This document shows, piece by piece, positions 12,430 to 35,194 of a stretch of 64,000 nt of DNA (the first letter of the stretch is position 1; every line of letters starts with the position of its first letter). The notes beneath the pieces were generated by a model. That model had not been told where the DNA came from. It did no database searches and saw only the letters and a list, made by a program, of their open reading frames with translations. The stretch comes from an uncultured cyanobacterium (lineage in GTDB: Bacteria; Cyanobacteriota; Cyanobacteriia; Leptolyngbyales; Leptolyngbyaceae), in the NCBI GenBank assembly GCA_963766075.1, contig CAVYAN010000072.1:64001-128000 (forward strand), written 5' to 3'. The position numbers and the translations under genes were made by a program.

Positions 12430-15400
12430 TTAGGCAGTGACAAACTGGCTGCTAGTAATCGTATTGGCAGACACGGCCTTAATCGTTGCTAGCAGATCGG
12501 TACCCGCACTAATCGTAGTATCCAAACCGCTTTGAGCAATGGTAAGACCGCTGAAGGTCAAACCCGTGCCTAACCGGAAGCGATCGCCCGCCCCAAACCC
12601 GGTGCTAATGGTGACAAAACCAGTGCCGGAATTGAGTCCGAAAATGTCGCTCCCATTACCCGCAAACACCGTATCAATTCCCGTTCCGGTATTAATCACA
12701 TTGCTGCCTCCACCCGTGTAGATAGTGTCATCGCCAGCACCACTATTGATGATGTCATTTCCACTACCCGCAACGATCAAATCACTACCCGCTCCTGTGG
12801 TAACGGTGTTGTTCCCTTCTCCGGCATAGATTTGGTTGTTACCGTTGCCTAGAGCGATCTCATCATTGCCGTTGCCAGTCAATACCAGATTGTTGCCGTT
12901 GCCCGCCAAGATTCGATTATTGCCGTCACCCGCATAGAAGGTATTGTTACCGCCAGCACCATCCATGAGGTTGTTCCCATTGCCCGCAAACAATGTATCG
13001 TTGCCATCACCAGCCCGCAAGGTGTTATTGCCTTCCCCCGCAAAGAAGCGATCATCGCCACCCAAACCCAAGATGGTGTCATCGCCATTGTCGCCAAACA
13101 GAGTATCACTACTCGCGGTACCGCGATTGCCCGTGAGTTTGGCATTCACTTCAAACTGGCTAAGGATGCGGGGGGTGCGGCTGGTAATGGCTGCCGGATT
13201 CGCCAACAGTTCCGCTTCCGTGTAGGCATCAATCCCGTAGGTGGTAACGGTGAGTTTTGAGTGGCTTGATCGATATCAAACTCAGACCAACTGTAGCTAT
13301 GTCCAACAAAGTAGTCACCCTGCAACAGCTTGGCATCAATCAGGCCATTCGCCTGGGGCAAATTATCATCTAACCCCAGTGGATCAAAGCCCAGGGGCTT
13401 CAGTAAGGTGTTATTCACCGCCTGCTTGACGAAATCATCTTTATCGTTGGCGATGTTGTCTGTATCGGGGGCGATCCGCAGGGAATCGTAGAGCGCCTTT
13501 AACTGCGGATTGGTAGCCGTGAACAAATTCGCCAGGAATGCTCCGGTCGGCTGTTCGTAGGCCACTGCCCCAGTGGTGATTTCAAAGACGCTGGTGGCAA
13601 TTTGTGGCCCAAAGGGCACTTCCTGATACGTCAGATTGTTGACAAAGGTGGTGTGCACATCTGCGGCTACAAAGACCACATTGGTGAGTTTGTTGTCGTT
13701 GATGAACTTCAACAGTTCCGTACGCTCCGCATTGTAGCCCTCAAAGGCATCGGTGTTGATGCCGGGGAAGATGTTTTGGATAGGCTCGGGCACCATCACA
13801 AATTTCCAACTGATGCCATTCCGTTCGGCTGTCAGCAGGTCCTGCTTCAGATCTTCAAGCTGAATTTTGCCCAGCAGGGTACGACCGGGGGCAAAAGTTT
13901 GCACCAAAACGTTCCCAACTTGCTGTGGATTGGTGAAATCCGTTGGGCCTGGAATTTCTGCATCCCGGAAGGAGCGGGTATCCAGAATAAACGTGGCCGC
14001 GTCATTGCCATAGGTGTTGTAGCGGTAGATTTTGCGCTCACCCGCGGTGCGCGGATCGCCGGTATTCCCGTAGAAGTCATTCCGAATCGGATTGTATTCC
14101 TGAAAGGCTTGGAGACCATTCTCAAACAACGCCGTGTCATTAATTAAACGACCGGGGGTGCTGTCCTTAAAGCGCGGGTCAGAGGCCGCTAACTCACCAC
14201 CCGCAAAGTCATTGGTGACTTCATGGTCATCAAAGGTAACCAAAACAGAGGTTGAAGCCCGCAAGTCCGCCCACGTGTTTTGACCAAAGCGATCGCTATA
14301 GACTTCAATGTGCTTCGCCCGATATTCATCCAAGGTTTCTGCTTGGGCCTTCGGCAACCCAGTGGCAGGATCCAGCAGGCCGGGAGAGGCATCATCGGCA
14401 TAAATGGTATCGCCGTGCTCCACAAAGAACTTAAGGTTGCGATCGTCCGCATTGGAGATGGCTGGATAGGGAGCCAGTTCACCGCGCCAGTCACCGGAAA
14501 CACCGAACCGTAAACCCGTTTGGGTCCCGATCGCCGCTGCCGTGCTAAATTTCCCAACTTCGCTATCCTGGGCCGCATCCGTCACCCGATAGAAATATTG
14601 CGTATTGGGTTGCAAGCCATTGACTTCCACCTTTACGGGTTGCAGCGGATTGGTGACAGTGGCGGTGGCGGTCCCAGCAATCGTCTTGAAGCTGGCATCG
14701 GTGGAGTATTCAAACGTCACCCCTCCCGTAAAGTTGCTGCGAGCCCACAGGACCGTCGAAGTTTGGGTAGTATCGCCACTGGCAATGCCGTTCAGTAAGG
14801 ATTGAGCTTGGGGCGTGCGGGGATTGTAGCTGCGGGTATCAATATTCAACGGATTTGGAAACGCGTTGGCAATGTTTTCCCAGGGCACAAACTTAAAGTT
14901 GGTATTGATGTTTTCACCCTCCAGAATCTGGGCAGGCAGGTTGCTGCCATCTTGGGTGACAAACAAGCCAAAGGGAAAGTTCGGGCCGAGAGGCAGGTTA
15001 ATCACATCGGCCCCATCGGATTCCTGGACACCGTCAATGCTGCCGTTAGGACCCACCGCAAACTGTCCCAAGTAAGCGTTGTTGCCTTCGCGACTGTAGA
15101 CCGCAAAGGTGTTGTCGCCCTGACTGGAAGCCAACAGGTAGCCTGTGCCGTTGGGTCCATAGTAGATCGTCAATCCTTCCACATCATCGGTCAGGCGGTT
15201 GCCCCCCAGGGTACGCACGCGGTCAATCAGCGTCCCAGTACTACCGCCATTGGGTTCCGCGAAATACTTCCAGATGCCCACATTTTCTTGCCCAATGTAA
15301 AGGAAGCCCGTTTCCTGATCCACGACCATGCCCTCAAGCTGGGGATCGGTGGTAGTCGGTGCGTTGGGGGGAATAGGCACCGTAAAGGCGCGTACTCGCT

Positions 15401-18385
15401 CGGCCCCAATCGTGCCGTTCCCCGCGTCCATTAAGCGGTACTGTGCCACATCCCCGGTTTGCCGCCGGTTGACAAAGGCATAGTAGTCGCCCGTGACGGG
15501 ACTGCGGTATAGGGCAGTGCCGTAGGCGCTGCGGGTTGACGTGGAATAGGGTGGGTTGAAGGGGGCCGCCTGGAACAGGGTGCCCAGGCTGGGGCTGGTG
15601 ATGTCCACTAGGTACTTGCCATCGGTGGCATTGGGATTGATCTTGAAGATCACCAGTTTGTCGTTGTTGCGATCGCTCGCAACGGCAATGTCAATGGCCT
15701 GCCCACCTAACTTAAACCCGTACTGCAAGTCCACATTGTTGTAGCGAACGCTGACGGGGTTGACCGTCTGCAAGCCGGGATTGATGGTCTGCAACAACTC
15801 GCCCGCCAGGTTATAGACCTGCAGACCGCCATTCTTGATCGCCGTGACCACCAAACTGTTAGCCGGGTTAGTCGCATTGACGTAAATCGCCGGATCATCA
15901 GAATCGGCCCGTTGGCTAAAGGGCAAGGTGGAATCATCCAGGTTGGCCTTGTTGGTTTCCAGCGCCGGAGCGATCGTGGGTATAAATCAGCGCCCAAGGC
16001 CAAAATTTGGGTAAACTGGGTGGCGCTAAAGTTGTTGTCACTCACCAGCACAATCGATTGACGACCATCCGCTAGTTTGGGGCCAAATTCGATGCCTTCA
16101 ACGTTATCTAAACCAGTGCTCAGTTTGAGATCATCCAAGTTCAGCACAAGGCGCTTTTGCACCGGTTGGATAGCAGCACGTTCAGCCGAGGTCAGGCGAG
16201 TGAGCGAGTCGTACGCGCTAATGTCAGTCGCCCCTTGCAGGCTGATTTCGTAAATCCGAATTGTGTTACCTTTGCCAACGGCAAACGATCGCTCCAAGGC
16301 TAAAAATGTGCCTCGGTTATCCAGCGCCAACAGATCGACTAGGCCGTTATCGGCAGACCCCGTGACCGGATCCGGCGCTTTGGCGATCGCTGCCACAGGG
16401 TAGAGATATTCTTTCTCAGGCTGCCCAGTCACCAAGTTGTATTGGATGATTCGCGCTGCGCTACCACTGGTGAGCGTCGAAATCGGTCCATCCTGGAACA
16501 AGGCACTTTCTGTTGCCGAATACAGGGTCTTTTGGTCGGGCGTAATCGTTAAGCTCTCGAAGGCTAAGTTATTGCGGACTCCAGCCATTTGCAAGTCGCC
16601 AGAATCTACCACACCATTCCCATTTGTGTCTTGAACCTTGGGCAAAAACTTAGTGGGCAAGGCCAGAGTGCGAATTTCCTGGCCCGTGGTTAGATTGAAT
16701 TCTTTAATGAACGGATTGGTGACGCGGGTCGCGCCCAAATCGGGGCGAACTTCCCCTTCCGAAGACACAAAGACAGTCCCATTCTGGGTTAATGCAATGT
16801 CTTCGGGATCCAGGCTAAAGCGAGGAAAGGTATTGCCATTGGTATCCTTCAACGTCGTCACGCCCGTGAAGGTCGCACCATTAGTCCCCAAGGTCGCTGG
16901 GTTTGCCGTGAAGGTATAGAAGCGGGCAGGGGCAATATCGGAGCGATCGTCGGAAATCGCATAGTATTGGTTCTTCACAGCATCATAGGTAACGCCCGAC
17001 AGGCCCCCCAGGGGAGTAGGTGCACCATTGACACTGCCAGCAGTTCCCGCAGGAATAGTGCCCGTGGGAATTACAGTCTGTCCCAAAAAGCCGGGGGTGC
17101 CGACAACCGTTTTGCCTGCTTCAGTTGCACCAACCTGGATATCCGCATAGACCAAACGGTGATCGGAGCTGGGATAGCCGTTCAAGAACGTTGGCGCAAA
17201 GGTCCCCACAGGCGTAAACGTGGGATCGGTATTCAATGGCCAAAACACGCGGGAATTGGTAATTGTCAGGTCCGTGGAGGGCAGCACATAATCTGCCCGC
17301 AGGTTACCCGGCGTGGTATCGGCAAAGTCAGCGGTATCAAACGCTGGGTTGCCCGTCTGGGTGGCATTAGCTCCTCCCTGCAAAGCATTTTGCTGCGGCC
17401 CGCCAAGGCTGGTTGGAATAAAATTGGTGTTGATGTTGGGACTTTGCAGGAGTTGCAGCACGGCCCGATTGTAGCTGTCACCATCGTAGGGATCGGCATT
17501 TTGATCGCCCATGATCACAAAGCTGGCCCCCGCCGCTAAACCGCCCAGGTTGCCTTTGTCGTCGTAAATGTAGCTGCCTTGGCCGGGGGCAACGTAGTCT
17601 GCCCAAAAGCGAATTTCATCGGCGTTGCGCTTGCCGTTGCGATCTTCCGTTCCATCAAAGACGGGCGGCGTGGGATGGCTCACCAGCGCATGTACCGTCT
17701 GGCCATTGATTTGAATCGGCACATCCCAATGGCTCTTGGAGGAGAGGCGCAAAATCGCCTGCTCTTCTGTAGAGTAAAAGCCACCGAGGTTTTCATTCAC
17801 GGGGGTCGCGGGGTTATCCAACGTAGGGTCATTGGTTAGCAAATTTCCCGGCATATCCTTCCACAGAAAATTCTGGAAGGTCCGGATATTGGCCACGTCA
17901 ATCGGATACTTTGACAGCAGCACCAGGCCAAACTGTCCGGGGAAATTGCCAAACCCAAAGGCATCGTCGCCATAGCCCGCTGCCCCAATGCCATCCGTCA
18001 CCGTGGTGACCGTCGCCCCGTTGTTGTTGAGGTCAAAACCCGTGGGAATCCCAGTATTTGAGGGGGCGATGTAGAAGTAGGGATAGCTAACCGGAGCCGC
18101 ACCATTTTGGGCGATCGCCAAAAAGTTCTGCTGAAACAGACGAACAGCCTCGGCAGGATTGGCGGCAAAAAAGTCAAACTCGTTAATCAGCAGGACATCG
18201 GGGTTGGCCCGTTGAATGATTTCGGCCACATTTCTGACCTGTTGCACCCGCACGGCCTGCGAAATAGTCGTGCCCCGGCTGTCGGGAATGGCGGGATTAG
18301 AGAAATCATTGATGATTTGCCCCACCGCATTGCGGTTAAGGGAGGCATTAAATTGAGAGAACCGAACGGTAGTGGTAGTAACCAT
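12430..18385 (-). CDS. Giant secreted multidomain phosphatase: EEP domain, phytase-like esterase, beta-propeller phytase, PhoD alkaline phosphatase, RTX Ca-binding repeats (~1985 aa; two apparent frameshifts near 15983 and 13256)
   Basis: Three overlapping track ORFs join into one frame with one base restored at each junction; motifs SSKSHWDV, SSDHRLV, ISDDRS, DNVEG, DDPAIY, SSQGDN, GIASGD, FDDHEVTND, GGxGxD repeats. Confidence 0.85.
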
Positions 18386-19320: not shown

Positions 19321-20754
19321 ATGGTACCTCTAACGTTACAGGCTACGTATCCGCGCGATGTGCGATCGCCCGCCTTTGGCCAACTGGGCAAAGCGGTTTC
19401 CATGAAAGGAATGCGGGTGATTGCTTTGCTAGCACTGGACATTTTCTCGCTGTGTCTAGCAGAACTCATTTCAGGACTGTTGGGAACACCTTGGTCAACA
19501 TCTTGGTCGATGCCGAGTCATCTCCTAGCCGTGTTGTTTCCCATGCTCAGCATTCAAGTCACGCTGCTGATCGCCGGTAGTTTTTATAAGCCTGGAGAAG
19601 CATGGCGAGACTATACCGGCGTGGCGAAGTCTCTGACCCTCGGCGCAATTTTACTGCTGTTGTTTCTCTATTTTGATCATCCCAGTCAACTGATTTCGCG
19701 ATCGCAGTTCCTTTGGTTTTGGATCTTGAGTATTGCCTTGGTCCTGACCGGACGCTTCTGCATCAACTGTGGGATCAACCAATTACGCCAACGGGGATAC
19801 GCCCGCTACGCTGTCTTCTTGATTGCCGACGCGGAGCACCGGGAGCGATCGGTGGATATCATTCAATGCCGGAATCAGTATCACTTGGCAGGCACCAGTG
19901 GCGCAGCGGCACTCGACGCCGATCAGCAGGAAACCACCCTAGAACACCTGCGGCAACTGGGAGTGGCGGAGGTCTTTGTGTCCTGGAGCGCGATTCAAGA
20001 TCGCCTGTATTTGTGCTGGCAGTTTCAGGCTGCCGGGATCCAACTTCATGTGATTCCCGACAATCTCGATACGCTGTTGCAAAGCTCAACTTCGTGGGCC
20101 TTAAGCACACCACCCACGCTAAGTTTTACGCCGCAATTGATTACCAACAGTGATTTTTGGATTAAGCGCATCTTGGACTTCTGTGGGGCGCTGTTGATAT
20201 TGACGATTTTCTCACCCCTGTATGGGCTGATTGCGTTATTGGTTAAGTTAGATTCTCCAGGGGCCGTGTTTTATCGCCAAACGCGCATTGGCCTGCATGG
20301 CCAACCTTTCCAAGTCTGGAAGTTTCGCACCATGGTCACCAATGCCGATCAACTGCAAGCGAACCTAGAAGCCCAAAACGAATCCAAAGATGGCATCTTA
20401 TTCAAATTAAAGTCTGATCCACGAATTACGCGGGTGGGGAAGTGGCTGCGGCAATATAGCCTGGATGAATTGCCCCAGATCGTGAATGTACTGCTAGGCG
20501 AAATGAGTTTCGTCGGGCCTCGGCCCTTGCCGGTGCGCGATGTTGAGAAGTTTTCCCAGCACCATTTTGTCCGACATCAAGTATTGCCAGGAATTACTGG
20601 ACTTTGGCAGGTTTCCGGGCGATCAGATATTATTAACTTTGAGGATGTGATTCAGTTGGATTTGACTTATATCCAAAATTGGTCACTGTGGTTAGATTTA
20701 CGCATCTGCCTGCAAACAGTTAAGGTCGTATTACAGAAGACCGGGGCCTACTAG
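19321..20754 (+). CDS. Priming sugar transferase (WcaJ/CpsE-type polyprenyl glycosylphosphotransferase)
   Basis: N-terminal TM helices; KFRTM, DPRITRVG, SLDELPQ, GEMSFVGPRP, PGITGLWQV. Confidence 0.92.
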   Translation: MVPLTLQATYPRDVRSPAFGQLGKAVSMKGMRVIALLALDIFSLCLAELISGLLGTPWSTSWSMPSHLLAVLFPMLSIQVTLLIAGSFYKPGEAWRDYTGVAKSLTLGAILLLLFLYFDHPSQLISRSQFLWFWILSIALVLTGRFCINCGINQLRQRGYARYAVFLIADAEHRERSVDIIQCRNQYHLAGTSGAAALDADQQETTLEHLRQLGVAEVFVSWSAIQDRLYLCWQFQAAGIQLHVIPDNLDTLLQSSTSWALSTPPTLSFTPQLITNSDFWIKRILDFCGALLILTIFSPLYGLIALLVKLDSPGAVFYRQTRIGLHGQPFQVWKFRTMVTNADQLQANLEAQNESKDGILFKLKSDPRITRVGKWLRQYSLDELPQIVNVLLGEMSFVGPRPLPVRDVEKFSQHHFVRHQVLPGITGLWQVSGRSDIINFEDVIQLDLTYIQNWSLWLDLRICLQTVKVVLQKTGAY

Positions 20755-21100
20755 ATGTCTAAAGAGCATGTCTAAAGAGCCCGCATCTACCGGATCGGGG
20801 CTGGGGGATGGCCCCTTGCCGCTCCTGCCCAATACCACTACGCGCATAGGGTTCCCCTCGTCCCGTCTCTGCCAAAAGACATTCCCACAGCACGCGCCCA
20901 AAGCATTCTCTGAGTTCATCCCTGGATTGAGTTCATTTCTGCATTAAGTGTATTCCTGGATTGGGTTTATTCCTAGATTGATTGGCCATCGGCATCGCCC
21001 GTCGCCATCGCTGGAAGCACGCAATCTACAGGCTTGTCAGCCCATCGGAAATCAACTCAATCTATCGCCTAGTCCACATTATCGCCATTCAGCCAATATC

Positions 21101-22666
21101 ATGACAGATTCAACTGATTGCACTCCAAGGCTTCCCAGTGACGCGATGATGACCGCGCCCACCGAGACCAGTCCTGCGCCTGAGCAGCTTGCCGTCCCGC
21201 TCAATCTTGAGGGCACACCCGACTCTCGGGCGATCGCCCAGGATTTTCTGGAACACTATGAATCCTTTGTCGATGGGGCTCATGATCATTGGCTGTCTTG
21301 GCAAACACCGCCCTTCTACGTGGAGGATACCCCGGTCACCGAATCGCGGGTCTGGGCTAAGGCGGGCGTAGCGGGCATGGTGGGGCTAGCTGCCATGACT
21401 GCCGCCAGTGTGCTGCTGCCACAGGATACCGTGTCCGCGATCGCCCAAGTGCCCCAAAAGCTCCCCTCGCCTGCGGTCGCACCGAATTCTGCGACCTCCT
21501 CACCCCAAGTGGCACTGCCCGCCCTACCGAGCATAACGGCGATCGCCCCCGCCGAAGTCCTGCCGCAGGTTTCGTCTTTCACCGCCACAGCCGCAGACCC
21601 CGCCCCAACATTGACCATTCCGGCAGTAAGCAGTCCAGCAATTCGCTCCCCCTGGCCCGCTGGACAAGTTATTGGGCAGCAACCGTCTGGTGTGGCACAG
21701 GCGGGCCTGCCCCAGGCTCAATTCGCCTTAACAAAATTACCGCAGCTCGCATTACCCAAAATCAACTTACCTCAGATTCAATCGTCACAAATTCAGTCGT
21801 CACAGATTGAGTCAACAAAGATTGAGTCAACAAAGATTGAATCAACAAAGATTAAATCAACAAAGATTGAATCGTCACAGGCCAATCTATCGTCGGTACA
21901 ATTACCACAGCCTGAATCGTTCCAGAGAAAATCATCCCTAGGCGAATCATCCACAACAGCATCACCACAGCCGGCATTATTACGGGAGATAGGTGCCCCC
22001 TTGACCATTGGCACTCCCCAAGCCATGCCATCGACAGAATGGTCACCAGGAAGCGGCCTCAATGCCATCCAAAGTCCTTCGTCGGCAGAGCCTGAGCCCA
22101 CCACCACCTTCCACCCCCCAGCAGAGCCGAGTACTGAAAAACAGCCAACGCTGGCTGCACCGGGGGCCTCCGGGGTGTTGCCACAGCCCAGCACACCCGT
22201 TGTTCCTGAGTTCACCGAAACCCACCTAAATCAAACGGGGAATCCGTCTTTGGCCGCAATCAAACTGCCGGGAGTGTTCTCAATCAATCCATCGCCACAG
22301 GTCCATCAGGCGATCGCCACGGCCCAGACGTTGCAAGACTTCCTGAAACTATCCCAGAAAATCCCCGAAAACGCCCAGGCGGTGCTATCGCTGACGCCCC
22401 AAGCAGCGCTAGCTGTACCCAATGCGCCGATGGTAGCGAATCTACCTGCCACCGGTGAGCAGAGCGGCCCCCAGGATCAGACAGGATCCCAGAATCAGAC
22501 CCCAGCCACTGAGCACTCTCTACCGTCATTCCAGGTCTTTCGATTGCCAGCCACCTTATATCAAAAAGCCTGGATCGCGCTAACGCAGACCAATGGCCAA
22601 GCCGCTGTACCCACGCATGGCTTCATCGACTATCAAGAACGAGCCATTGTTTTGCCCTCTCTCTAA
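21101..22666 (+). CDS. Pro/Ser/Ala-rich hypothetical membrane-anchored protein
   Basis: Long ORF in the EPS locus with one hydrophobic segment and a low-complexity body; start uncertain (track 20948). Confidence 0.65.
   Translation: MTDSTDCTPRLPSDAMMTAPTETSPAPEQLAVPLNLEGTPDSRAIAQDFLEHYESFVDGAHDHWLSWQTPPFYVEDTPVTESRVWAKAGVAGMVGLAAMTAASVLLPQDTVSAIAQVPQKLPSPAVAPNSATSSPQVALPALPSITAIAPAEVLPQVSSFTATAADPAPTLTIPAVSSPAIRSPWPAGQVIGQQPSGVAQAGLPQAQFALTKLPQLALPKINLPQIQSSQIQSSQIESTKIESTKIESTKIKSTKIESSQANLSSVQLPQPESFQRKSSLGESSTTASPQPALLREIGAPLTIGTPQAMPSTEWSPGSGLNAIQSPSSAEPEPTTTFHPPAEPSTEKQPTLAAPGASGVLPQPSTPVVPEFTETHLNQTGNPSLAAIKLPGVFSINPSPQVHQAIATAQTLQDFLKLSQKIPENAQAVLSLTPQAALAVPNAPMVANLPATGEQSGPQDQTGSQNQTPATEHSLPSFQVFRLPATLYQKAWIALTQTNGQAAVPTHGFIDYQERAIVLPSL
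21776..21880 (+). repeat. Seven 15-bp coding tandem repeats (IQSSQ/IESTK)
   Basis: attgagtcaacaaag-like units x7. Confidence 0.9.
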
Positions 22667-22712
22667 ATCACCCTGAATCCTACCATCACATCTCACCACC
22701 CGGACTACGCCC

Positions 22713-24884
22713 ATGGATACTACTGACTTCTCAGAAGAATTAAATTTTGGCAAATACTGGCTCGTGCTCAAACGGCGTTGGCTGCTGATTGCATTGATTT
22801 CCGGCACGACGTTAGGATTGGCCACGGTCTGGACCCTCCGACAACCTCCCATTTACGAAGCAACAGGGAAATTGTTATTTAAAGCCAACAAAACCTCCAA
22901 CCTGATTGGGATTCAGGCCGATTCCGGCAAACTGGAAGCCCTGACCCAAAAAGGCGATCCGCTGAGCACAGAAGCGGAAATTTTGCGATCGCAGCCGATC
23001 ATCGAAGCCGCCCTAAAAGGGTCAAATTTGCGCAATTCCCGAGGCCAACGCCTAGATCCAAAGGCTGTAGCGGGTAGACTCAGCGTTAAGCCAGTTGTGG
23101 GCACCGATATTTTACAAGTTAACTACACAGCCAATGATGCCCAATTGGCGGCAGCGGTGATTAATCAAGTTATGAAGGCGTATCTCAACAACAATGTTGT
23201 GGTCAATCGAGCCGAAGCCGTCGCCGCCCGAAAGTTTATTATCGATCAATTGCCCGCTACGGAAGCGGCGGTCAATCGGGCTGAAGCTAATCTACGGCAG
23301 TTTAAAGAAGCTAATGGCATTGTGGTGCTCGATCAAGAAGCGATCGCTTCAGTCCAAGGACTATCAGCCCTCGACAAAGAAATCACCACAGCCCGAGCGG
23401 CCCTCGGCAAAGCCAATGCCCAAACCTCGGCCCTGCGTAGCCAAGTGGGAATGGATGCCCGCACTGCCCTAACCCTGAATTCTTTAAACCAGTCTGACGG
23501 CGTTCAAAAAGCACTCACCGAGTGGCAGTTGGTGCAGTCGCAACTGGCTAAACAAAAGACGCTGTACCGTGATGGCTATCCAGTGGTGTCGCAGTTACAG
23601 CGACAAGAAGCTGCTGCCAAGTCTGTTTTACAGGATCGGGTCGCTGGCATTGTGGGGCAGAATATCACGGTCGATCCCGGCAGTCTCCAATTGGGCACCA
23701 CGCGTCAAGAACTCGTCCTTTCCCTGGCGCAGGCGGAGACCGAGCGGTTGGGGTTAGCCAATACCCTAGATTCCCTGACCCAATCCCAGGCGACCTTTGC
23801 GGCGCGATCGCAAAGTATTCCGGCCTTAGAAAAAACCCAGCGACAACTCGAACGAAAACTCGATGCCGCCCAAACCACCTACAAAACGCTCTTGACCAAA
23901 CTCCAAGAGGTCCAAGTCACGGAAAATCAAACCATTGGCAATGCCCGAATTGTGGCCACTGCCGATGTTCCCGAATTTCCGATTGGGCCGAAGGTGTTGA
24001 TTAATTTGCTAGCGGGCGGGATCGTGGGCGTGCTATTGGGCATATCCGCCGCGTTTCTGCTGGACTATGCGGATCAGTCTGTTAAAACCTTGGGTGAAGC
24101 CAAAACGCTGTTTCCTTATCCCTTATTGGGGGTGATTCCGACGATCGCCACCGCGAGCAAAGCAGCAACGGCCTCCGCCATGCCCCAATTGGTCACCCGC
24201 GATCGCCCCGATTTCGGGGCACAGGAAGCCTACCAAATGCTCCAGGCCAATTTACGCTTCTTGACCTCCGATCAGCCTTTGCGAGCGATCGTCGTCACCA
24301 GTACCATGCGTCAGGAAGGCAAGTCCACCGTAGCTGCCAACTTAGCCACCGCCATGGCCCAGGGACAACGGCGGGTACTGTTGGTGGATGCCGATTTGCG
24401 GCATCCCTGCCAGCACCATGTTTGGGATATCAATAATTTGATTGGCCTGAGCAATGTGATTGTAGGTCAAGTTGAATTCACACGAGCCATCCAGTCCGTA
24501 ACCTCCCATTTGGATGTGCTATCAGCAGGGGTCACGCCCCCCAATCCCATTGCCTTACTCGATTCCCAGCGGATGGCCAGCTTGATTGCCACAGCAGTGG
24601 AACAGTATGACTTTGTGATTTTGGATGCCCCGGCGTTATCGGGCACGGCAGATGCCACAGTCCTCAATAAAATGACCGATGGCAGTTTGCTGGTGGTGCG
24701 CCCCGGAGCCATCCAGGCCAGTGCTGGCAAAACGGCCATCCAGTTTCTAGCCCAGTCCGGCCAAACGGTGTTAGGCATGGTGATTAATCATTTTGATGTG
24801 CGAAAAGAACCCGATAGCTATTTCTACTACACCCAAGAGCAACAATTGCAGACTCCAGTCAGTGCTGATGCCGTGAATGGGTAG
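22713..24884 (+). CDS. wzc: Polysaccharide co-polymerase/tyrosine autokinase (Wzc/GumC)
   Basis: Two TM segments, coiled coil, EGKST Walker A, DADLR, C-terminal Tyr cluster SYFYY. Confidence 0.9.
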   Translation: MDTTDFSEELNFGKYWLVLKRRWLLIALISGTTLGLATVWTLRQPPIYEATGKLLFKANKTSNLIGIQADSGKLEALTQKGDPLSTEAEILRSQPIIEAALKGSNLRNSRGQRLDPKAVAGRLSVKPVVGTDILQVNYTANDAQLAAAVINQVMKAYLNNNVVVNRAEAVAARKFIIDQLPATEAAVNRAEANLRQFKEANGIVVLDQEAIASVQGLSALDKEITTARAALGKANAQTSALRSQVGMDARTALTLNSLNQSDGVQKALTEWQLVQSQLAKQKTLYRDGYPVVSQLQRQEAAAKSVLQDRVAGIVGQNITVDPGSLQLGTTRQELVLSLAQAETERLGLANTLDSLTQSQATFAARSQSIPALEKTQRQLERKLDAAQTTYKTLLTKLQEVQVTENQTIGNARIVATADVPEFPIGPKVLINLLAGGIVGVLLGISAAFLLDYADQSVKTLGEAKTLFPYPLLGVIPTIATASKAATASAMPQLVTRDRPDFGAQEAYQMLQANLRFLTSDQPLRAIVVTSTMRQEGKSTVAANLATAMAQGQRRVLLVDADLRHPCQHHVWDINNLIGLSNVIVGQVEFTRAIQSVTSHLDVLSAGVTPPNPIALLDSQRMASLIATAVEQYDFVILDAPALSGTADATVLNKMTDGSLLVVRPGAIQASAGKTAIQFLAQSGQTVLGMVINHFDVRKEPDSYFYYTQEQQLQTPVSADAVNG

Positions 24885-24958
24885 TTTTGCTTGCTGATTC
24901 AATGGGTTGTTAAGGAGCTTGGTTATTCAGGAGTTGGGTTGTTAAGGAGCAAAGGTTA

Positions 24959-26011
24959 ATGGTCAAGACAAAGCAATTTTTAAGTTCGGCGTGGGCGATC
25001 GCCGTTGTTCTCGGCGCAACGGCGATTTGTCCGCCGCCAGCCCAGGCCGTCACCCTGGAGCAGCCGTCACCAAAGACGATCTATTCCGGTTACCTGCTGG
25101 GTGCAGGAGATCAAATTGAAATCTCGGTCCCTGGCTACCAGGATTTTACCGGACCCCGCGTGATTCTACCCGATGGCACGATTTCCTTACCGGTGATCGG
25201 CTCGGTGATGGCCATTGATCGCACGTCTGATCAATTAGCGAAGGACCTTCAGGCGAAATTAGGATCATTTTTAGTGGATCCGATCGTCACTGTCAGCTTG
25301 TCTACGTTACGTCCCGTAGTGGTGAATGTAGCGGGAGAAGTGCAACGTCCAGGCCCACTTCAGCTTCGGAGCCTGACCACGACTACGTTTAAGACCTCGG
25401 GCAGTAGTGTGACCAGTGGACTGGAGGGCGTGCCCACACTCAGCTCAGCTCTCACGGAAGCGGGCGGTGTGACCCGCAATGCTGACATTCGTCAGGTAAT
25501 ATTGCGGCGTACCCTCCCCGGAGGGCAGACCACCAGCGTGACGGTGAATCTGTGGGATGCAATTTGGTCTGACAAGCAACCCGAAGATCTGGTGCTGCGG
25601 GCGGGCGATGCCATTTATGTTCCCAAGTTACCCGAGGGCGCGGTCTTCGATCGCCGATTGCTGGCGCGATCGCGCTTGGCCCCGGCCACGGTGCGGGTGC
25701 GCGTCGTCGGCGAAGTCAACCGACCGGGAGAACTGCTGATTTCACCGGACAGTACCTTATCGAGTGCGATCGCCAATGCGGGCGGTTTTACCAAGGATGC
25801 TAGACCCAGGGAAGTGCGGTTAGTGCGGCTGAATGACCAGGGGCAAATCGATACGCAGGCAATTGATTTAACCCGCCTCAATGACACGCTCCAGGTCCAG
25901 GAAGGAGATGTCCTGGTTGTCCCGGAGAAAGGGCGATCGTCCTTCCTGCGGGTGTTAGGTCAGGTGTTGAGTCCCGTCGGCAGTTTGCTGAATATTATCC
26001 GGGGTTTCTGA
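24959..26011 (+). CDS. wza: Polysaccharide export protein (Wza-like, SLBB domains)
   Basis: YLLGAGDQI...PDGTISLPVIG, GEVQRPG, GEVNRPG. Confidence 0.88.
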   Translation: MVKTKQFLSSAWAIAVVLGATAICPPPAQAVTLEQPSPKTIYSGYLLGAGDQIEISVPGYQDFTGPRVILPDGTISLPVIGSVMAIDRTSDQLAKDLQAKLGSFLVDPIVTVSLSTLRPVVVNVAGEVQRPGPLQLRSLTTTTFKTSGSSVTSGLEGVPTLSSALTEAGGVTRNADIRQVILRRTLPGGQTTSVTVNLWDAIWSDKQPEDLVLRAGDAIYVPKLPEGAVFDRRLLARSRLAPATVRVRVVGEVNRPGELLISPDSTLSSAIANAGGFTKDARPREVRLVRLNDQGQIDTQAIDLTRLNDTLQVQEGDVLVVPEKGRSSFLRVLGQVLSPVGSLLNIIRGF

Positions 26012-26609: not shown

Positions 26610-26924
26610 ATGAACCCGCTAACATCCAATTTTGAACTCTTAAAAACGGCTTCGGTGGTTGCATCCAGCGACCAGATTTCATCTGACTTGGGGGGCGAGT
26701 CTGTCATCCTCAATTTAAAGTCTGGCACCTATTTCGGCTTGAATGAAGTGGGCAGCCGGGTGTGGGAGCTGATTCAATCGCCCCGCCGCTTTGCCGACCT
26801 GTCCATGACGCTTTGCCATGAGTATCTAGTGGACTCTGAGGTTTGCGATCGCGACTTGATGACACTTTTACAAGAGCTGCATACAGCAGGCTTAATTCAG
26901 GTGAGTCATGGAGAAGCTACGTAG
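26610..26924 (+). CDS. Lasso peptide B1 protein (PqqD-family RiPP recognition element)
   Basis: DLGGESVILNLKSGTYFGLNEVGSRVWELI...LLQELHTAGLI; directly upstream of B2 and C. Confidence 0.92.
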   Translation: MNPLTSNFELLKTASVVASSDQISSDLGGESVILNLKSGTYFGLNEVGSRVWELIQSPRRFADLSMTLCHEYLVDSEVCDRDLMTLLQELHTAGLIQVSHGEAT

Positions 26925-27363
26925 AAAACTGCATCGGCTGCGGCAGATAGGCGGACACGGTGTCTGGCTATTGATGATGGCGTTTATCGTGCTGGGAGCC
27001 GTGCGATTGGGGCTTTGGCTGTTGCCCTTTCATCGGGTGCTGCGGGGGTGCGAGACAGTCAGCCAACTCTCGATTCTGCGCCGCCAAGCTTGCTTCGCGG
27101 TGGCCGATCTCATTTGGGCGGTGAATTGCAGCAGTCGCTACATGCCGGGTGGCGTGAAATGTCTAGCCCGCGCGTTAACCACAAAGGTACTGATGCAGCA
27201 GCAAGGGTATGTTCCAGAGTTGAAAATTGGTGTCCGCAAGAGCAGTCAAGGTCACCTAGAGGCCCATGCCTGGATTGACTATAACGGTCACATCGTGATG
27301 GGCAATGTAATGGATTTACCGCGCTATCTGCCGTTACCCTCGCTGGGAGGGATACAACCATGA
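26908..27363 (+). CDS. Lasso peptide B2 leader peptidase (transglutaminase-like)
   Basis: KCLARAL (catalytic Cys), IGV, EAHAWID (His); overlaps both B1 and C. Confidence 0.92.
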   Translation: MEKLRRKLHRLRQIGGHGVWLLMMAFIVLGAVRLGLWLLPFHRVLRGCETVSQLSILRRQACFAVADLIWAVNCSSRYMPGGVKCLARALTTKVLMQQQGYVPELKIGVRKSSQGHLEAHAWIDYNGHIVMGNVMDLPRYLPLPSLGGIQP

Positions 27364-29379
27364 GTGGGATTGTTGGCTTTTATCACTTCAATCCGCCTCG
27401 CTTAAACCCGCCCGCGATCGCCACCAAGGCCCTGCAACACATGGTGGCAGCCCTAAAGCATCGGGGGCCAGATGGATCAGACGTCTGGCAATCGGGCGCA
27501 ATTGGGCTGGGGCATTGTCTGCTACGGACAACGCCCGAGTCTTTGGTGGAATCAATGCCCTATCACCACAACAATTTAGTCATCACCGCCGATGCCCGCA
27601 TTGACAATCGTGAAGAATTGCAGGTTCTTTTAGGGCTATCCCCGCAGTCCTTGGCAAAAATGCCCGATAGCCAGTTTATTTTAGCGGCCTATGAGAAATG
27701 GGGAACAGCCTGTCCCGAATATCTTTTGGGTGACTTTGCCTTTGCCATTTGGGATGGCGATCGGCAACAGCTTTTCTGTGCGCGGGATCACCTGGGGGTG
27801 AAGCCATTTTACTACTATGCCTCGCCTCAACTCTTTGTTTTTGCCTCAGAAATTAAAGCGCTATTTTGTTTGCCAGAAGTGCCCCGGCGGCTGAACGAAG
27901 TGCGGATGGGCGACTTTTTGGCCCTGAGTTTGGATGATCTGGTCCTGACCAGCTATCAAGATATTGTGCGGTTGCCGCCCGCCACTGGCATGATCGTGAA
28001 TGCAGCGGGTGTCCGACTGCAAACCTACTGGACGCTGGATCCCCAGCGGGAGTTGCGTCTAGACTCTGATGAAGCCTATGCCCAAACCTTTCGGCATATT
28101 TTTACTGAAGCGGTTCGCTGTCGGCTGCGGAGTGCGTTTCCCATCGGCAGTCACCTGAGCGGCGGCTTGGATTCGTCGTCGGTGGCCTGTGTGGCTCGTA
28201 ATCTGTTGCAGGCGGAGCAGCAACCATTGCATACGCTGTCTTTAATCTTTGACGCCGTGCCACAGTGTGATGAGCGTTCCTATATCAATACTGTGCTCGC
28301 CCAAGGCGGCATGATCCCCCACTTTATTCATGGCGATCAGTTCAGCGCTTTGTCCAATCTGGATGAAGTGTTTGAGTATGAAGATGAGGCCCTGCTGGGT
28401 CCGAGCCATAGCTATCCCTGGTATCTGAATCAGTTGGCCAGTCAACACAATTTGCGTGTCTGCTTAGATGGTTTCGATGGCGATACGGCGGTGGGACATG
28501 GCGTCCGACGGCTGACGGAATTGGCGCTGCACCTGCAATGGGAGACCTTTGCCCATGAAGCCCGCAGTGTGGCGATTCACTTTGCGGGGTTGGGAGCGTC
28601 GCCCCAGGGCTTACTCGTGAACCATGGGTTTCCAGCATTGCGGCAGTTTGCGCGGCGGGGGCAGTGGCTGAAGTTTGGGCGATCGCTGAATCAAATCCAC
28701 CGCCATTTCAACATTTCACGCAAGGCACTCCTGAAGGAATGCGGCCTCAAAGCCTTGATTCCCGCTGGGCTACAACGGCACTGGCAGCGGCGACAGACAT
28801 CATCCCCGGCCCGTCTTAGCCCCCTTGGCGAATCGGGCCTTTGCCAAGCGGATTGGCCTGGAGCAACGTCTGGGGAAATTGAACACCGCTGTCCCCATGA
28901 CCGTGCGCCAAGAGCAGTGGCAAGCCCTGACCCAGGGCTGCATGGCCTACACCCTGGAACAGGTCGATCAATTTGCCGCCCGGTTTGGAGTGGAAATGCG
29001 CCATCCGTTCATGGACAAGCGGCTAGTGGAGTTTTGCTTGGCGCTCCCGGCAGAGCAAAAGCTGTGCGACGGCTGGACGCGGATGATTATGCGGCGAGGG
29101 TTGGAGGGAATATTGCCGGAGGAAATTCAGTGGCGGGGCGGCAAAATGAATGCTACGCCTAACTTTGTGGATGGGTTGGTGAATCGCGATCGCCAGCTTC
29201 TGGACGCGGTCATGACGTCTAAACTGACGTATCTCCAGGATATGGCGGATTTAGAGGTCCTGACTGCGGCTTACCAGCGCATTACGGCTCAGTCCCCCGC
29301 TCCAGAGGCCGATCACATCCTGGTGTGGCAAGGGGCGAGTCTGGCCGCTTGGCTAGAGCATCACGACTCGATGTTCTAG
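27360..29379 (+). CDS. Lasso cyclase (asparagine synthetase-like isopeptide bond-forming enzyme); one apparent extra C at 28820-28824
   Basis: MSGIVG start (no catalytic Cys1), HRGPDG, ARDHLGVKP, LSGGLDSS, DGFDGD; C-terminal RHPFMDKRLVEFCLALP in the next frame. Confidence 0.9.
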
Positions 29380-29532
29380 GTCATGGGCTCAGGCGAGCGG
29401 GTTCAAGTTTCGGGGTGTATTTGGAGTGGATTCAGGGGTGGATCTGTAGGGTTTTCATTAGATTTAACCTCTGCCCATTCAACGACAATGGATTGACGAT
29501 AGCAATTTAAAAAGAAAAAAGAGGAAAAACCT

Positions 29533-29694
29533 ATGAAACCCTACAATCGGCCCCAACTGACGGTCTACGGCACGGCCAAAACGATCACGCAAGGGTTTGA
29601 TCACCACAATGATAAGGAGATGGCTCCGCTCGTGGCAGAAGCAATGCACGACCGCGACCACCGCCCCCGGAACGGTTCCTGCGATTTCGGTTGA
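29533..29694 (+). CDS. Lasso precursor A1, 53 aa: MKPYNRPQLTVYGTAKTITQ-GFDHHNDKEMAPLVAEAMHDRDHRPRNGSCDFG
   Basis: Hand-translated, not in the ORF track; GAGG RBS, YxxPxL leader motif, Thr at -2, Gly1, Asp7/Glu9. Confidence 0.88.
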   Translation: MKPYNRPQLTVYGTAKTITQGFDHHNDKEMAPLVAEAMHDRDHRPRNGSCDFG

Positions 29695-29844: not shown

Positions 29845-30069
29845 ATGAAGAAGTACAAAAGTCCCCGGTTGGTGACCTACGGCAACGTAGAAACCTTAAC
29901 CCAAGCCAATGGAAACGGCTCAGCTAACGATTTCTTTATCTTTACGGGTGATATTACTGGTCAGGTTCCAGGCTCAACCTTTGGAGCATCTGGATCAGGT
30001 AACGTAAATGCAACACCACCTTCCATAAAAAATAGCCTGTTTCTAGCCTTAGAAGCGTTAATACGTTAG
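29845..30069 (+). CDS. Lasso precursor A2, 74 aa: MKKYKSPRLVTYGNVETLTQ-ANGNGSANDFFIFTG...
   Basis: AGGAG RBS, YxxPxL leader, Thr at -2, Ala1, Asp9; leader 10/20 identical to A1. Confidence 0.88.
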   Translation: MKKYKSPRLVTYGNVETLTQANGNGSANDFFIFTGDITGQVPGSTFGASGSGNVNATPPSIKNSLFLALEALIR

Positions 30070-31457: not shown

Positions 31458-33339
31458 GTGAACGCCACCCTCCGCCATGCCAAAACCATCCTCCGCCAGG
31501 GACACAACACTGGCTCCCTAATTTGGGCCGCTGCCCGCTACTGGAGCTGTGTCTGGGTGGGCCTATTGGTGATTCAAGGCATCCTGCCCGGAATGACCGT
31601 ATACCTAACGCGGCACGTCGTCGATAGCCTGGTCGGAGCCGTGGGTGCAGGCATCTCCTGGCACAGTATCCAATCGGTGCTGCTGCCCGCCAGTGTGATG
31701 GCTGGAGTCCTGGTTTTGCAGCAGGTGCTGGATGGCGTCAGCAGTTGGGTCAATACGGCCCAGTCGGAACTGATTCAAGACCATGTGAGCGATCTGATTC
31801 AGAAAAAATCCGTCGAAATTGACTTCTCTCGCTATGACAGCTCTGACTACTATGACCAGCTCGAACGGGCGCGGGGCGGAGCCGCAGGGCGATCGCTGGC
31901 CATGCTGGGCAATGTCGGGGGCATCGTGCAAAACAGCATTACTCTGCTCACCCTGGCCGCAATTTTATTGCCCTATGGCCTCTGGCTGCCGATCATTCTG
32001 GTCCTGAGTGCGCTGCCCGCATTCTATATTGTGCTGCGACTCAATCGGCAGCAGTATCAGTGGAACCAAAAAATCACCACCGATCAGCGCTGGCTGATGT
32101 ACTACGAATTACTGCTGACCAACAGCGCCGTAGCCGCCGAAGTCCGCCTGTTTGACTATGGTGACTACATTCGCACCGCTTACCAACGGATTCGTAAACG
32201 CCTGCGGCAAGAACGATTGGCGCTGGTTCAGAGCCAAGGACTAGGCCGATTCGGGGCGGGCCTGATTGCCCTCACGCTCTCTAGCTTAGCCCTAGTGTGG
32301 ATGGGACATCAATTGCTTTTGGGTGTGCTCAAGCTGGGTGATCTGGCGCTGTTTTATCAGGCGTTTACCCGAGGCCAGGGCATGGTCAGCGCTATTTTTG
32401 GGGGACTCGGGCAGCTCTATCAAAATAGTTTATTTATGGGTGACTTGTTTGATTTCCTGAAGCTGCAGCCCCAAATTGTCGATCCACCCCAGCCATTGCC
32501 CCTGCCGCAGTCCATGCAGTCCGGCATTCAGTTTAAAGGGGTGCGATTTTGCTATCCTGGGGCACCCCAGTCCCACCTTGGATAACTTTAATTTAACGAT
32601 TCCGGCAGGCCAGATTGTGGCGATCGTGGGCGACAATGGCGCGGGCAAAAGCACACTGATTAAGTTACTCTGCCGACTCTACGATCCCCAGGCTGGATGC
32701 ATCGAAATCGATGGGCAAGATATCCGCCAATTTTCCGTCAAGGCGCTGCGGCGATTCATTACCGTGCTGTTTCAGTCTCCCATTCCCTACTACACGACGG
32801 CCACGGAGAACATCACCCTCAGTGATATTCACACGCCACCGCCCGCCGGGGCCATTGAAGCTGCGGCTAGGGCCGCTGGCATCCACGACAAGCTGCTGAG
32901 TTTGCCCAGTGGGTACCAAACCCTATTGGGCAAGCTGTTTCCCGAAGGTACGGAGTTGAGTGGTGGCCAGTGGCAGCGGTTGGCTCTCGCCCGAGCTTTT
33001 TTCCGTCAGGCTCCGCTGATTATTTTGGATGAGCCGACCAGTGCCATGGATTCCTGGGCCGAGTTTGACTGGTTAAAGCGGTTTCGTCACCTGGCCCACG
33101 GGCGCACGGCGGTGGTGATTACCCATCGGTTTACCTTGGCCATGCAGGCGGATGTGATCCATGTGATGCGGGCGGGCCAAATTGTGGAAACGGGCACCCA
33201 CCGTGAGCTGTTGGATCAGGCTGGAATCTATGCCCAATCGTGGCGATCGCAAATGGAAACGCCTGCCGATGCAGCAGTTGAAGCCCTGGACACCGCCAAT
33301 AGCCCTGCTCAAAATCTCGCCGGAAAATTCTCACCATAG
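31458..33339 (+). CDS. ABC exporter (TMD+NBD), lasso cluster D protein; apparent extra G at 32559-32562
   Basis: Multi-TM N-terminal half, then GDNGAGKST, LSGGQWQRLALAR, ILDEPT in the second frame. Confidence 0.88.
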
Positions 33340-33371: not shown

Positions 33372-34097
33372 ACACTGTCGTCTCATCCTCAAGGCCATGT
33401 GAATCCTATGCAAACAACCCGCTTGCCGCATTCGCCCGATCTACCTTCGCCAGACCCGCTACAGTCGGTGCCCCAGAACGTTCAGCCGCCCATCTCGCCA
33501 GAAATGAATTTGCTGATCGACTGTGCCCGCACCCAGATTGCCGATCCAATGGCGCAACACATTCGGGCGCTCTGTGGCTCGGCGTTGGATTGGGCGGTGC
33601 TGTTGCAGCTTGCCCAGCAGCATCGCCTGCTGCCCTTGCTGTACATTAACCTGAACACCATTTGTCCGGAGTTAGTGCCCGCGCCCATACTGCAAGAGTT
33701 GCAAAGGCTCTATCGACAAAACGGGCTACACTGTCGTCTCATCCTCAAGGTCATGTCCTCCAGGTCATGTGAATCCTATGCCAACACCCTGCTTGCCGCA
33801 TTCGCCCAATCTAGATTCGCCAGATCGGCTACAGTCAGTGCCCCAGAACGTTCAGCCGCCCATCTCGCCAGAAATGAATTTGCTGATCGACTGTGCCCGC
33901 ACCCAGATTGCCGATCCAATGGCGCAACACATTCGGGCGCTCTGTGGCTCGGCGTTGGATTGGACGGTGCTGTTGCAGCTTGCCCATCAGCATCGCCTGC
34001 TGCCCTTGCTGTACATTAACTTGAACACCATTTGTCCGGAGTTAGTGCCCGCGCCCATACTGCAAGAGTTGCAGAGCCTCTATCGACAAAACGGACT
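33372..34097 (+). repeat. Diverged tandem duplication (356 bp + 370 bp) of the nucleotidyltransferase 5' region
   Basis: Copy 1 33372-33727 and copy 2 33728-34097 nearly identical; copy 2 has an extra 14 bp. Confidence 0.9.
33399..33727 (+). pseudogene. Truncated duplicate of the nucleotidyltransferase N-terminus
   Basis: Encodes the same first ~110 aa, then runs out of frame into copy 2. Confidence 0.7.
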
Positions 34098-35074
34098 GCA
34101 TAATCTCCGCTTTACAGGGGAGCTGATCCAACTCTTGAAGAGCTTAAAGGCACAGGGGTTTGAGGCGGTGCCCTTTAAAGGCCCGGTGTTGGCGATCGCG
34201 GCCTATGGAAATTTGAACCTGCGGATGTTTGGCGATCTGGATATTTTGGTACAGACCAAAGACTATCTGCCCGTCCGGAACTTCCTGATCAGCCAAGGCT
34301 ATAGGACGGGTGAATCATGGCATTTTTCCAAAGCAGAAGAAGAAGCCCATATCACCTGGTTTGGTGAATGTGCCCTCATCCACCCGGAGCGGCGGGTCTC
34401 GATTGACCTGCATCAACGTTTAGTCGCGGGCTATTTATTTCGACTTTCTAGAAACTTTGATGCGATCTGGACGCGGCTAAAACCGATCGCGATCTTAGAA
34501 AAAACGGTGGAAAGCCTCAAGCCGGAGGACTTGCTTTTATATCTATGCATCCATGGCACCAAGGATTTCTGGCAACGCCTCACTTGGATCTGTGATATTT
34601 CCGAATTGATTGAGAGACACCCCACACTGCAATGGGATGAAGTGTTCGAGCAAGCCAAAGAACACGGGCAGAGCGGATGCTGCGCTTAGGGCTGGCCCTC
34701 GCGCATCAGATTTTAGGCACAGTCTTACCCTCCTGAAATTCAGGCCAAGATCCGAACGGATGTCTCCCTGGAGCGGGTAGTCTAGCGACCTCCGCCAGAA
34801 GATATACCACAACACAAACACACCACCCGGCAGGGTGACACCCAATGAGTTTTGGTACTACATGCAAGTGATGGACAATTGGCTAGAGCGCTTACATCTT
34901 AGCCGCCTCTACCTATGGCATTGGACGTTCTTTTCAGTGCAGAAATGGATTCGGCCCACCGCTAACGATCGCCTGTTTTGTCAATTGCCGGATGCTTGGT
35001 ACGGTCTGTACTATCTGATTCGTCCTTTCCGCTTAACAACTAAACTGCTGGGTTTAGCGAGACGGCACCCGTAA
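33769..35074 (+). CDS. Nucleotidyltransferase family protein (NTP_transf_5-like); about three apparent frameshifts at 34665-34790
   Basis: FKGPVLA..AYGNLNLRMFGDLDILV, IDLH, LYLCIHG.K..W.RL.WICDI; C-terminal LYYLIRPFRL in ORF 34835-35074. Confidence 0.82.
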
Positions 35075-35194
35075 TGCACTGGGCGGATCGCGCGATCGCC
35101 CGCTTTCGGGGAAAGGAGTACGCCAGAACTGGCCTATACTTGAAGGTGACTAAGATCTGATATTTCCTTCCGCTCCCGCAGGGGAGAGCGAGTT

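Follow-up and report, generated by a model that had tools for sequence, protein, structure and literature searches.

The window analysed here, 64,000 nucleotides of a contig from an uncultured cyanobacterium of the Leptolyngbyaceae, carries a short reading frame, A1, which an earlier note on the sequence had described as an unannotated lasso peptide precursor with a His/Asp-rich core, possibly metal-binding. The locus raises the question of whether A1 is a genuine precursor and, if it is, what kind of peptide its unusual core would give. The explanation that we prefer, with a probability of roughly 0.55, is that A1 would be a divergent second precursor of a lasso cluster of the kinase/nucleotidyltransferase type, giving a phosphorylated, exported peptide with a nine-residue ring and not a purpose-built chelator. 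The cluster type is already known; it is as a second precursor that A1 is divergent within it.

Reading frame, gene cluster and relatives of A1

Translation of the forward strand at 29533-29694 gave the 53-residue peptide that had been proposed, with a TGA stop, and the composition reported for its core was reproduced (33 residues, with 4 His, 5 Asp, 2 Glu, 2 Met and 1 Cys). The label "unannotated" also fits, as the exact sequence of A1 was absent from a collection of 15 billion proteins, in which A2, the other precursor of the same contig, was present. The elements of A1 are as follows.

29520..29525, + strand: ribosome-binding-site-like sequence AGAGGA, 7 nt upstream of the ATG of A1
29533..29592, + strand: leader of A1, 20 residues, with YxxPxL, Gly at -8 and Thr at -2; 19/20 identical in the homolog P0003
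29593..29694, + strand: core of A1, 33 residues, and stop; ring predicted between Gly1 and Glu9 (codon 29617-29619), followed by a hydrophobic run at positions 10-15
29677..29685, + strand: Ser29-Cys30-Asp31, fitting the SxD motif of the cyclase clade and kept in P0003; predicted kinase site

A1 belongs to a cluster of the order B1-B2-C-A1-A2-kinase-ABC-nucleotidyltransferase, which stands behind wcaJ/wzc/wza-like genes on one strand and is the only lasso cluster of the assembly (85% complete).

19321..26011, + strand: upstream polysaccharide genes (WcaJ-like sugar transferase, unknown ORF, Wzc-like, Wza-like)
19321-20754, + strand: WcaJ-like sugar transferase
22713-24884, + strand: Wzc-like gene
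24959-26011, + strand: Wza-like gene
26610..26924, + strand: B1, leader-binding RRE of the PqqD family (NF033536, 76.8 bits, cut-off 80); single copy in the genome by tblastn
26908..27363, + strand: B2, leader peptidase (NF033537, 100 bits, above cut-off)
27360..29379, + strand: lasso cyclase C, far above the cut-off of NF033535 (lass_lactam_cya); profile positions 1-477 and 487-668 in two frames of the assembly
29845..30069, + strand: A2, family-typical precursor, above the cut-off of NF033528
30426..31394, + strand: HprK-like kinase, intact (TIGR04352, E 9e-7, far under cut-off)
31458..33339, + strand: ABC exporter, two frames, with a switch near 32560
33386..33724, + strand: duplicate, 339 bp, of the start of the nucleotidyltransferase gene (95% identical, 16 mismatches, no gaps)
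33769..35075 (end approximate), + strand: PsmN-like nucleotidyltransferase, NTP_transf_5 (PF14907, 211.9 bits)

The two copies of the 339-bp duplication lie in tandem at 33386-33724 and 33756-34094. Between the WcaJ-like and Wzc-like genes, a Pro/Ser/Gln-rich ORF of 572 residues (20948-22666) gave no Pfam or NCBIfam match. Five-residue units form a short repeat in it, and one stretch is hydrophobic.

The assignment of A1 to the lasso-type precursors is supported by its leader motif, its B1-B2-C neighbours and one homolog. The leader has Thr at -2 and the [YW]xxPx[LVIFA] motif given for lasso leaders in excerpts of PMC13381572 and PMC7549694; the core offers an acid within positions 7 to 9 (Asp7, Glu9), and the RRE, peptidase and cyclase genes adjoin directly upstream. 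A1 resembles the lasso_cyano family (NF033528) in its leader match, the acid at 9, the hydrophobic run and the SxD near the end, but it scored 22.4 bits against a cut-off of 33, with a match confined to residues 2-22, whereas A2 reached 41.3; it also differs in having no Gly/Ser/Thr-rich core, 4 His and one Cys. NF033521 behaved similarly (16.7 bits, cut-off 19, residues 2-22 only), the leader alone scored 21.9 bits in the leader profile search, and comparisons of A1 with Pfam and PDB gave no match. The first ESM Atlas matches to A1 at 0.90 were unnamed clusters, a lead only.

The search for relatives that the earlier note had suggested yielded a single homolog, P0003 (49 residues, JGI), in the protein collection and none among the cyanobacterial genomes scanned. 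P0003 aligns with A1 from end to end at 34/53 identical positions (64%), with an in-frame gap of four residues and the stop in the same place; identity amounts to 19/20 in the leader, 10/15 at core positions 1-15 and 5/14, plus the gap, in the rest. A1 and P0003 have in common Gly1-Phe2, Asn6-Asp7-Lys8, an acid at 9, Met10-Ala11, Leu13-Val14-Ala15, Asp20-Arg21 and Ser29-Cys30-Asp31, and the core of P0003 has Asp7, Asp9, one His and a C-terminal Ser. Since an independent homolog ends at the same stop, A1 is not a chance ORF. A DNA search in 40 relatives found no homolog, and word-indexed protein searches returned one candidate each, none beyond P0003. A profile scan of 1.84 billion representatives gave six matches, namely P0003, one leader-only match and four long proteins. 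Scanning metagenome, genome and viral contigs for patterns produced no further homolog of A1, and a loose leader-plus-GF..acid9 pattern matched genome contigs 88 times with nothing A1-like. Among 400 genomes of the class, five weak matches comprised three unrelated lasso precursors and two cases without a precursor, and the cyclase end matched one distant locus in a scan of metagenomes. The A1-type sequences thus number two, which, together with a core off the family profile, counts against the preferred explanation. These sequence comparisons lead us to regard A1 as a genuine, overlooked second precursor of a predicted lasso peptide.

A frameshift artefact within A1 was considered and rejected, because P0003 agrees with it in frame and stop and none of the single-shift readings gave a family-like core, the best reaching 3.2 bits on the family profile vs 2.7 for A1 as read; the chance of an indel within its 162 nt is 2-8%. 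Frame switches do occur in the cyclase (around 28810-28825, where five C stand in a row), in the exporter and, two or three times, in the nucleotidyltransferase (about 34670-34790), and these broken genes also count against our explanation. They raise the alternative that the cluster is decaying, or that A1 is a drifting, unprocessed spare whose odd composition is accumulated change. At least four frame switches and the 339-bp duplication fall within 8.5 kb, compared with about 0.13 switches per kb genome-wide (27 in 208 kb), which places the cluster above the genome mean (Poisson P 0.026 for four switches, 0.006 for five). Drift would also suit Glu at core position 9 where the clade has Asp, Ala at leader position -6, found in only 2 of 59 other precursors, and a core far less conserved than the leader between A1 and P0003 (15/29 vs 19/20 identical, p 0.0013). 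Four His in 33 residues have a probability of about 0.02 with random codons and 0.006 at the His frequency of the genome, although such odds are modest for a feature singled out in hindsight.

Against decay, the frameshifts are spread over the genome (20/181 conserved genes, vs 7/222 genes and 11 switches in 322 kb in control genomes). They are clumped, with four in one 3-kb gene, and, in the manner of sequencing errors, often fall on short base runs; the breaks in the cluster can be explained without any in-frame stop, and the ribosome-binding site, leader, frame and stop of A1 are kept in a second organism. Nor is A1 clearly less constrained than A2, since the same leader-to-tail gradient appears when A2 is compared with P0011 (leader 19/20, core start 14/15, rest 9/24) and P0012 (19/20, 9/15, 6/24); for P0010 the values are 18/20, 15/15 and 18/24. 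We place sequencing error well ahead of real decay as the probable cause of the breaks, and consider a decaying cluster or an idle A1 unlikely. Broken genes or odd C-termini in this genome should be treated as possible sequencing errors. The last ~15 codons of A2, on record as 74 residues, are probably frameshift read-through, as its homologs P0010 (61 residues) and P0011 (64 residues) are shorter and end near residue 60. Elsewhere in the window, ClpB lies in three pieces (45998-48621) and phytase/PhoD in several (13149-18385). The ORF run at 12433-18385 carries endonuclease/phosphatase, phytase-like, phytase, PhoD and RTX-repeat domains; it probably represents a single large secreted phosphatase that frameshifts have split.

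Composition of the core and metal binding

The core was compared with those of other cyanobacterial lasso loci, using 58 cyclase loci, 47 of which contained 59 precursors with 55 distinct cores, and a wider set of 67 cores obtained by a leader-profile search. The core of A1 had been called longer and more charged than known lasso cores, and only the second part held. Unusual length was rejected, as the cyanobacterial cores have a median of 35 residues (range 21-58, with 31/55 at 33 or more) and those of A1's cyclase clade measure 31-58; the range of 13-33 residues stated in the available text of PMC13352647 has the 33 residues of A1 at its top. Charged residues plus His make up 0.455 of the core of A1 and 0.345 of that of P0003, vs a maximum of 0.333 in the 55 cores, and one 18-residue core of the wider set is charged at 0.44. 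The net charge of -3 is typical. The four His stand against none in 54 of the 55 cores and one in the remaining core (none in 65 and one in 2 of the wider set), and the single Cys against none in 42 and two in 13 (none in 52 and two in 15 of the 67, with an odd count in none). The fraction of His, Asp, Glu, Cys and Met reaches 0.42, vs a maximum of 0.26 in the 55 cores, and that of Gly plus Ser, 0.12, is below them all. On two core profiles of the family, A1 scored 2.7 and -0.3 bits, values equalled by 1 and 9 of 200 shuffles, compared with 23-25 bits for A2 and 12.9-52.5 for family members left out one at a time. The core of A1 is a true compositional outlier. A1 and A2 have one machinery in common and cores without similarity, and the pair shows how far one cyclase may stretch. 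Among other lasso-type sequences, 16-residue cores with one His were seen at loci L072, L087, L113, L148 and L150, from Kitasatospora where titled.

The composition had suggested chelation of Cu, Ni or Zn rather than a typical antibiotic. The latter remark is plausible, since the cluster is of the kinase/NTP-transferase type and adjoins polysaccharide genes, but dedicated chelation is, on sequence comparison, unsupported and is the weakest part of that reading. It would make A1 a lasso peptide selected for binding Cu, Ni or Zn, whose His, Asp, Met and Cys buffer sheath metals from a locked scaffold. The high ligand fraction, the His19-x-x-x-His23 spacing and the charge of P0003, above that of any of the 55 cores, fit this proposal, and a precedent for RiPP metallophores exists in the bufferins, which buffer copper (PMC11626156, in part).

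The histidines themselves argue against selection for metal, as 0/4 of them are identical in P0003 in BLAST and MAFFT alignments and at most 1/4 with a hand-shifted gap (n=2), and P0003 does not have the four-residue stretch that gives A1 its HxxxH spacing. The potential ligands kept in both sequences are Asp7, Met10, Asp20, Cys30 and Asp31. An ATCUN-type site combines a His at position 3 with the N-terminal amine; A1 has no such site, as there is no His at 3 and the amine would be consumed. The cluster contains no metal transporter, metal regulator or enzyme that builds a metal site, and the nearest metal genes are ureEFG, 20-23 kb upstream and ahead of a urea transporter. A Cys-containing core is common to A1 and the bufferins; according to the excerpts of PMC11626156, however, these depend on MNIO/DUF692 enzymes, on thiooxazoles and on a Sec signal, and neither such an enzyme nor a Sec signal was seen among the window ORFs of at least 120 residues that were scanned. 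A literature search by title or abstract start returned no metal-binding lasso peptide. Some metal binding by an A1-like peptide is chemically likely, with no sign of selection for it, and a dedicated metallophore appears decidedly unlikely.

Predicted ring and kinase site

The cyclase of the window falls in a clade of 28 rows (SH-aLRT 99 in a quick IQ-TREE run), and the statistics below compare 32 cores from the other 27 loci of the clade with 23 cores from outside it. Both Gly1-Asp7 and Gly1-Glu9 had been offered as rings. The latter is likelier and the former disfavoured, because an acid stands at position 9 in P0003 and in the clade (Asp in P0003 and in 28/32 cores) and none stands at 7 in the 55 other cores. 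Asp7 is kept in both A1-type cores, and Glu at 9 is found in 0/32 clade cores, a further point against the preferred explanation.

An SxD motif past position 14 is present in 29/32 clade cores, 26 of them as GSxD, vs 1/23 outside, and a C-terminal Ser in 2/32 vs 8/23. A1 ends in Gly and carries GSCD in its tail; apart from Ser29, its core has no Ser, Thr or Tyr. In shuffled tails of A1, GSxD arose by chance in 1.6% and SxD with a small or hydrophobic residue in 5%, and the SxD match arose in 10% of shuffled tails of P0003, so that the match of A1 to the motif is suggestive only. The kinase of the cluster is 29-48% identical to proteins in 56/58 other lasso loci. Because nearly all clade loci carry the kinase while few of their cores end in Ser, we infer that Ser29 is the phosphate acceptor; Ser29 within SxD is the likely kinase site of A1, and GSxD/SxD a candidate internal kinase site throughout the clade. 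An internal Ser target of a lasso kinase was not described in the literature searched. The kinase of the LPPs (linear polyphosphorylated peptides) of Bacillota, which acts on Ser3 (PMC13381572, in part), indicates that an internal target is possible. A1 would be a clean test of internal-serine use by these kinases, since it has exactly one hydroxyl residue in its core, and this residue lies within the motif characteristic of its cyclase clade.

The same enzymes might serve a linear product, in that A1 would be cut by B2 and phosphorylated yet left uncyclised, as a charged linear phosphopeptide like the LPPs. The core of A1 resembles no family core, its middle part is charged and helix-favouring, and the LPPs illustrate that sets of kinase, transferase and exporter can serve linear peptides in polysaccharide loci (excerpts of PMC13381572). 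Both A1-type sequences nevertheless retain Gly1, an acidic residue at 9 and the hydrophobic run that follows. The scanned ORFs of the window include neither a signal peptidase nor a second RRE, and the core does not have Ser3; a linear product therefore seems improbable to us.

The lone Cys30 could likewise be a selected feature, as a disulfide-linked dimer or a thiol tie to another molecule. Cys occupies the same place in 2/2 A1-type cores, and an odd Cys count has no parallel among the 67 others. Two related sequences, however, are too few to tell selection from shared descent, A2 offers no Cys as a partner, and the cluster contains no thiol-modifying enzyme. A dimer or thiol adduct through Cys30 is possible, but as the explanation of A1 this is a very long shot; it can be combined with the preferred reading as an add-on. 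A broader combination would make A1 a second, lineage-specific class of surface lasso peptide, phosphorylated at its internal SxD Ser and tethered or dimerised through Cys30, whose His, Asp and Met form a metal-buffering coat of the sheath. We regard this as doubtful, at about one chance in ten. If true, it would make A1 a metal-binding lasso peptide of a kind not found in the literature searched, and would fix SxD as the kinase site for the whole, uncharacterised cyanobacterial clade.

Relation to known systems and predicted pathway

The closest likeness is to pseudomycoidin of Bacillus pseudomycoides (cluster psmC-A-K-B1-B2-N-D), in which PsmK places a phosphate on the C-terminal Ser and hexose addition requires PsmN (PMC6993621, as far as its excerpts go). 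The two systems share split B1 and B2, a cyclase, an HprK-like kinase, an NTP transferase, an ABC exporter and a predicted nine-residue ring. They differ in that PsmA ends in a phosphorylated, hexosylated Ser, whereas A1 ends in Gly with one internal Ser, and in that two unlike precursors are present here, the core of A1 being long, charged and His-rich. The gene set of the paeninodin/pseudomycoidin type (kinase, NTP transferase, ABC exporter) is complete in the window, with the transferase and exporter frameshifted in the assembly; the C-terminal Ser of this type is replaced by Gly in A1 and present in P0003. From its genes, the A1 system would work like the pseudomycoidin type, yet A1 has no C-terminal Ser and falls below the NF033528 cut-off.

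According to the available text of PMC13381572, paeninodin-like clusters and LPPs of Bacillota are located in loci for capsular polysaccharide, with which they are co-induced, and the biological role of kinase/transferase-type lasso peptides in such loci is stated to be unknown. The present locus resembles these in its kinase, NTP transferase and exporter adjoining polysaccharide genes. Paeninodins, in those excerpts, have WxxP in the leader where A1 has YxxP, and the signal peptidase I, second RRE and Ser3 of the LPPs are missing here: no signal peptidase family was found among the scanned window ORFs, the genome has one B1, and Asp stands at core position 3. Genes like wcaJ, wzc or wza lay within ~7 kb of 16/58 other cyanobacterial lasso loci vs 3/40 arbitrary 20-kb stretches (Fisher p 0.018, with controls from two genomes and kin loci that are not independent). 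Pandonodin (class IV), in the parts of PMC13352647 and PMC7549694 available, shares with A1 its core length of 33 residues and differs in its tail disulfide. No characterised product of the cyanobacterial lasso_cyano group was found in the literature searched, and a phrase search for cyanobacterial lasso peptides returned no paper.

Under the preferred reading, the early steps would follow known pathways: B1 would bind the YxxPxL motif of the A1 leader, B2 would cut past Thr-Gln at -2/-1, and C would join Gly1 to Glu9 to close the nine-residue ring. The HprK-like kinase would then phosphorylate Ser29 of SxD, and the nucleotidyltransferase may add a hexose onto the phosphate, both steps being proposed here. 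The ABC pump would export the peptide, as in known pathways, and the exported peptide may work together with cell-surface polysaccharide, again our own proposal. The histidines of A1 would be lineage-specific changes at variable positions of ring and linker.

A further lasso-type arrangement was observed in many marine Gammaproteobacteria, including Alteromonas, Colwellia, Paraglaciecola, Parahaliea, Reinekea, Catenovulum and others (within loci L066-L153, e.g., L066, L068, L099-L101, L133-L135 and L140). A lasso-type core of 21 residues there starts with GF, has Asp8-Glu9 and mostly ends in NPFQG, with no C-terminal Ser; its neighbours often include genes for a cyclase and an HprK-like kinase together with a WcaJ-like gene, and it occurs in up to three copies per locus. 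This core is nearly invariant, which is unusual for such cores.
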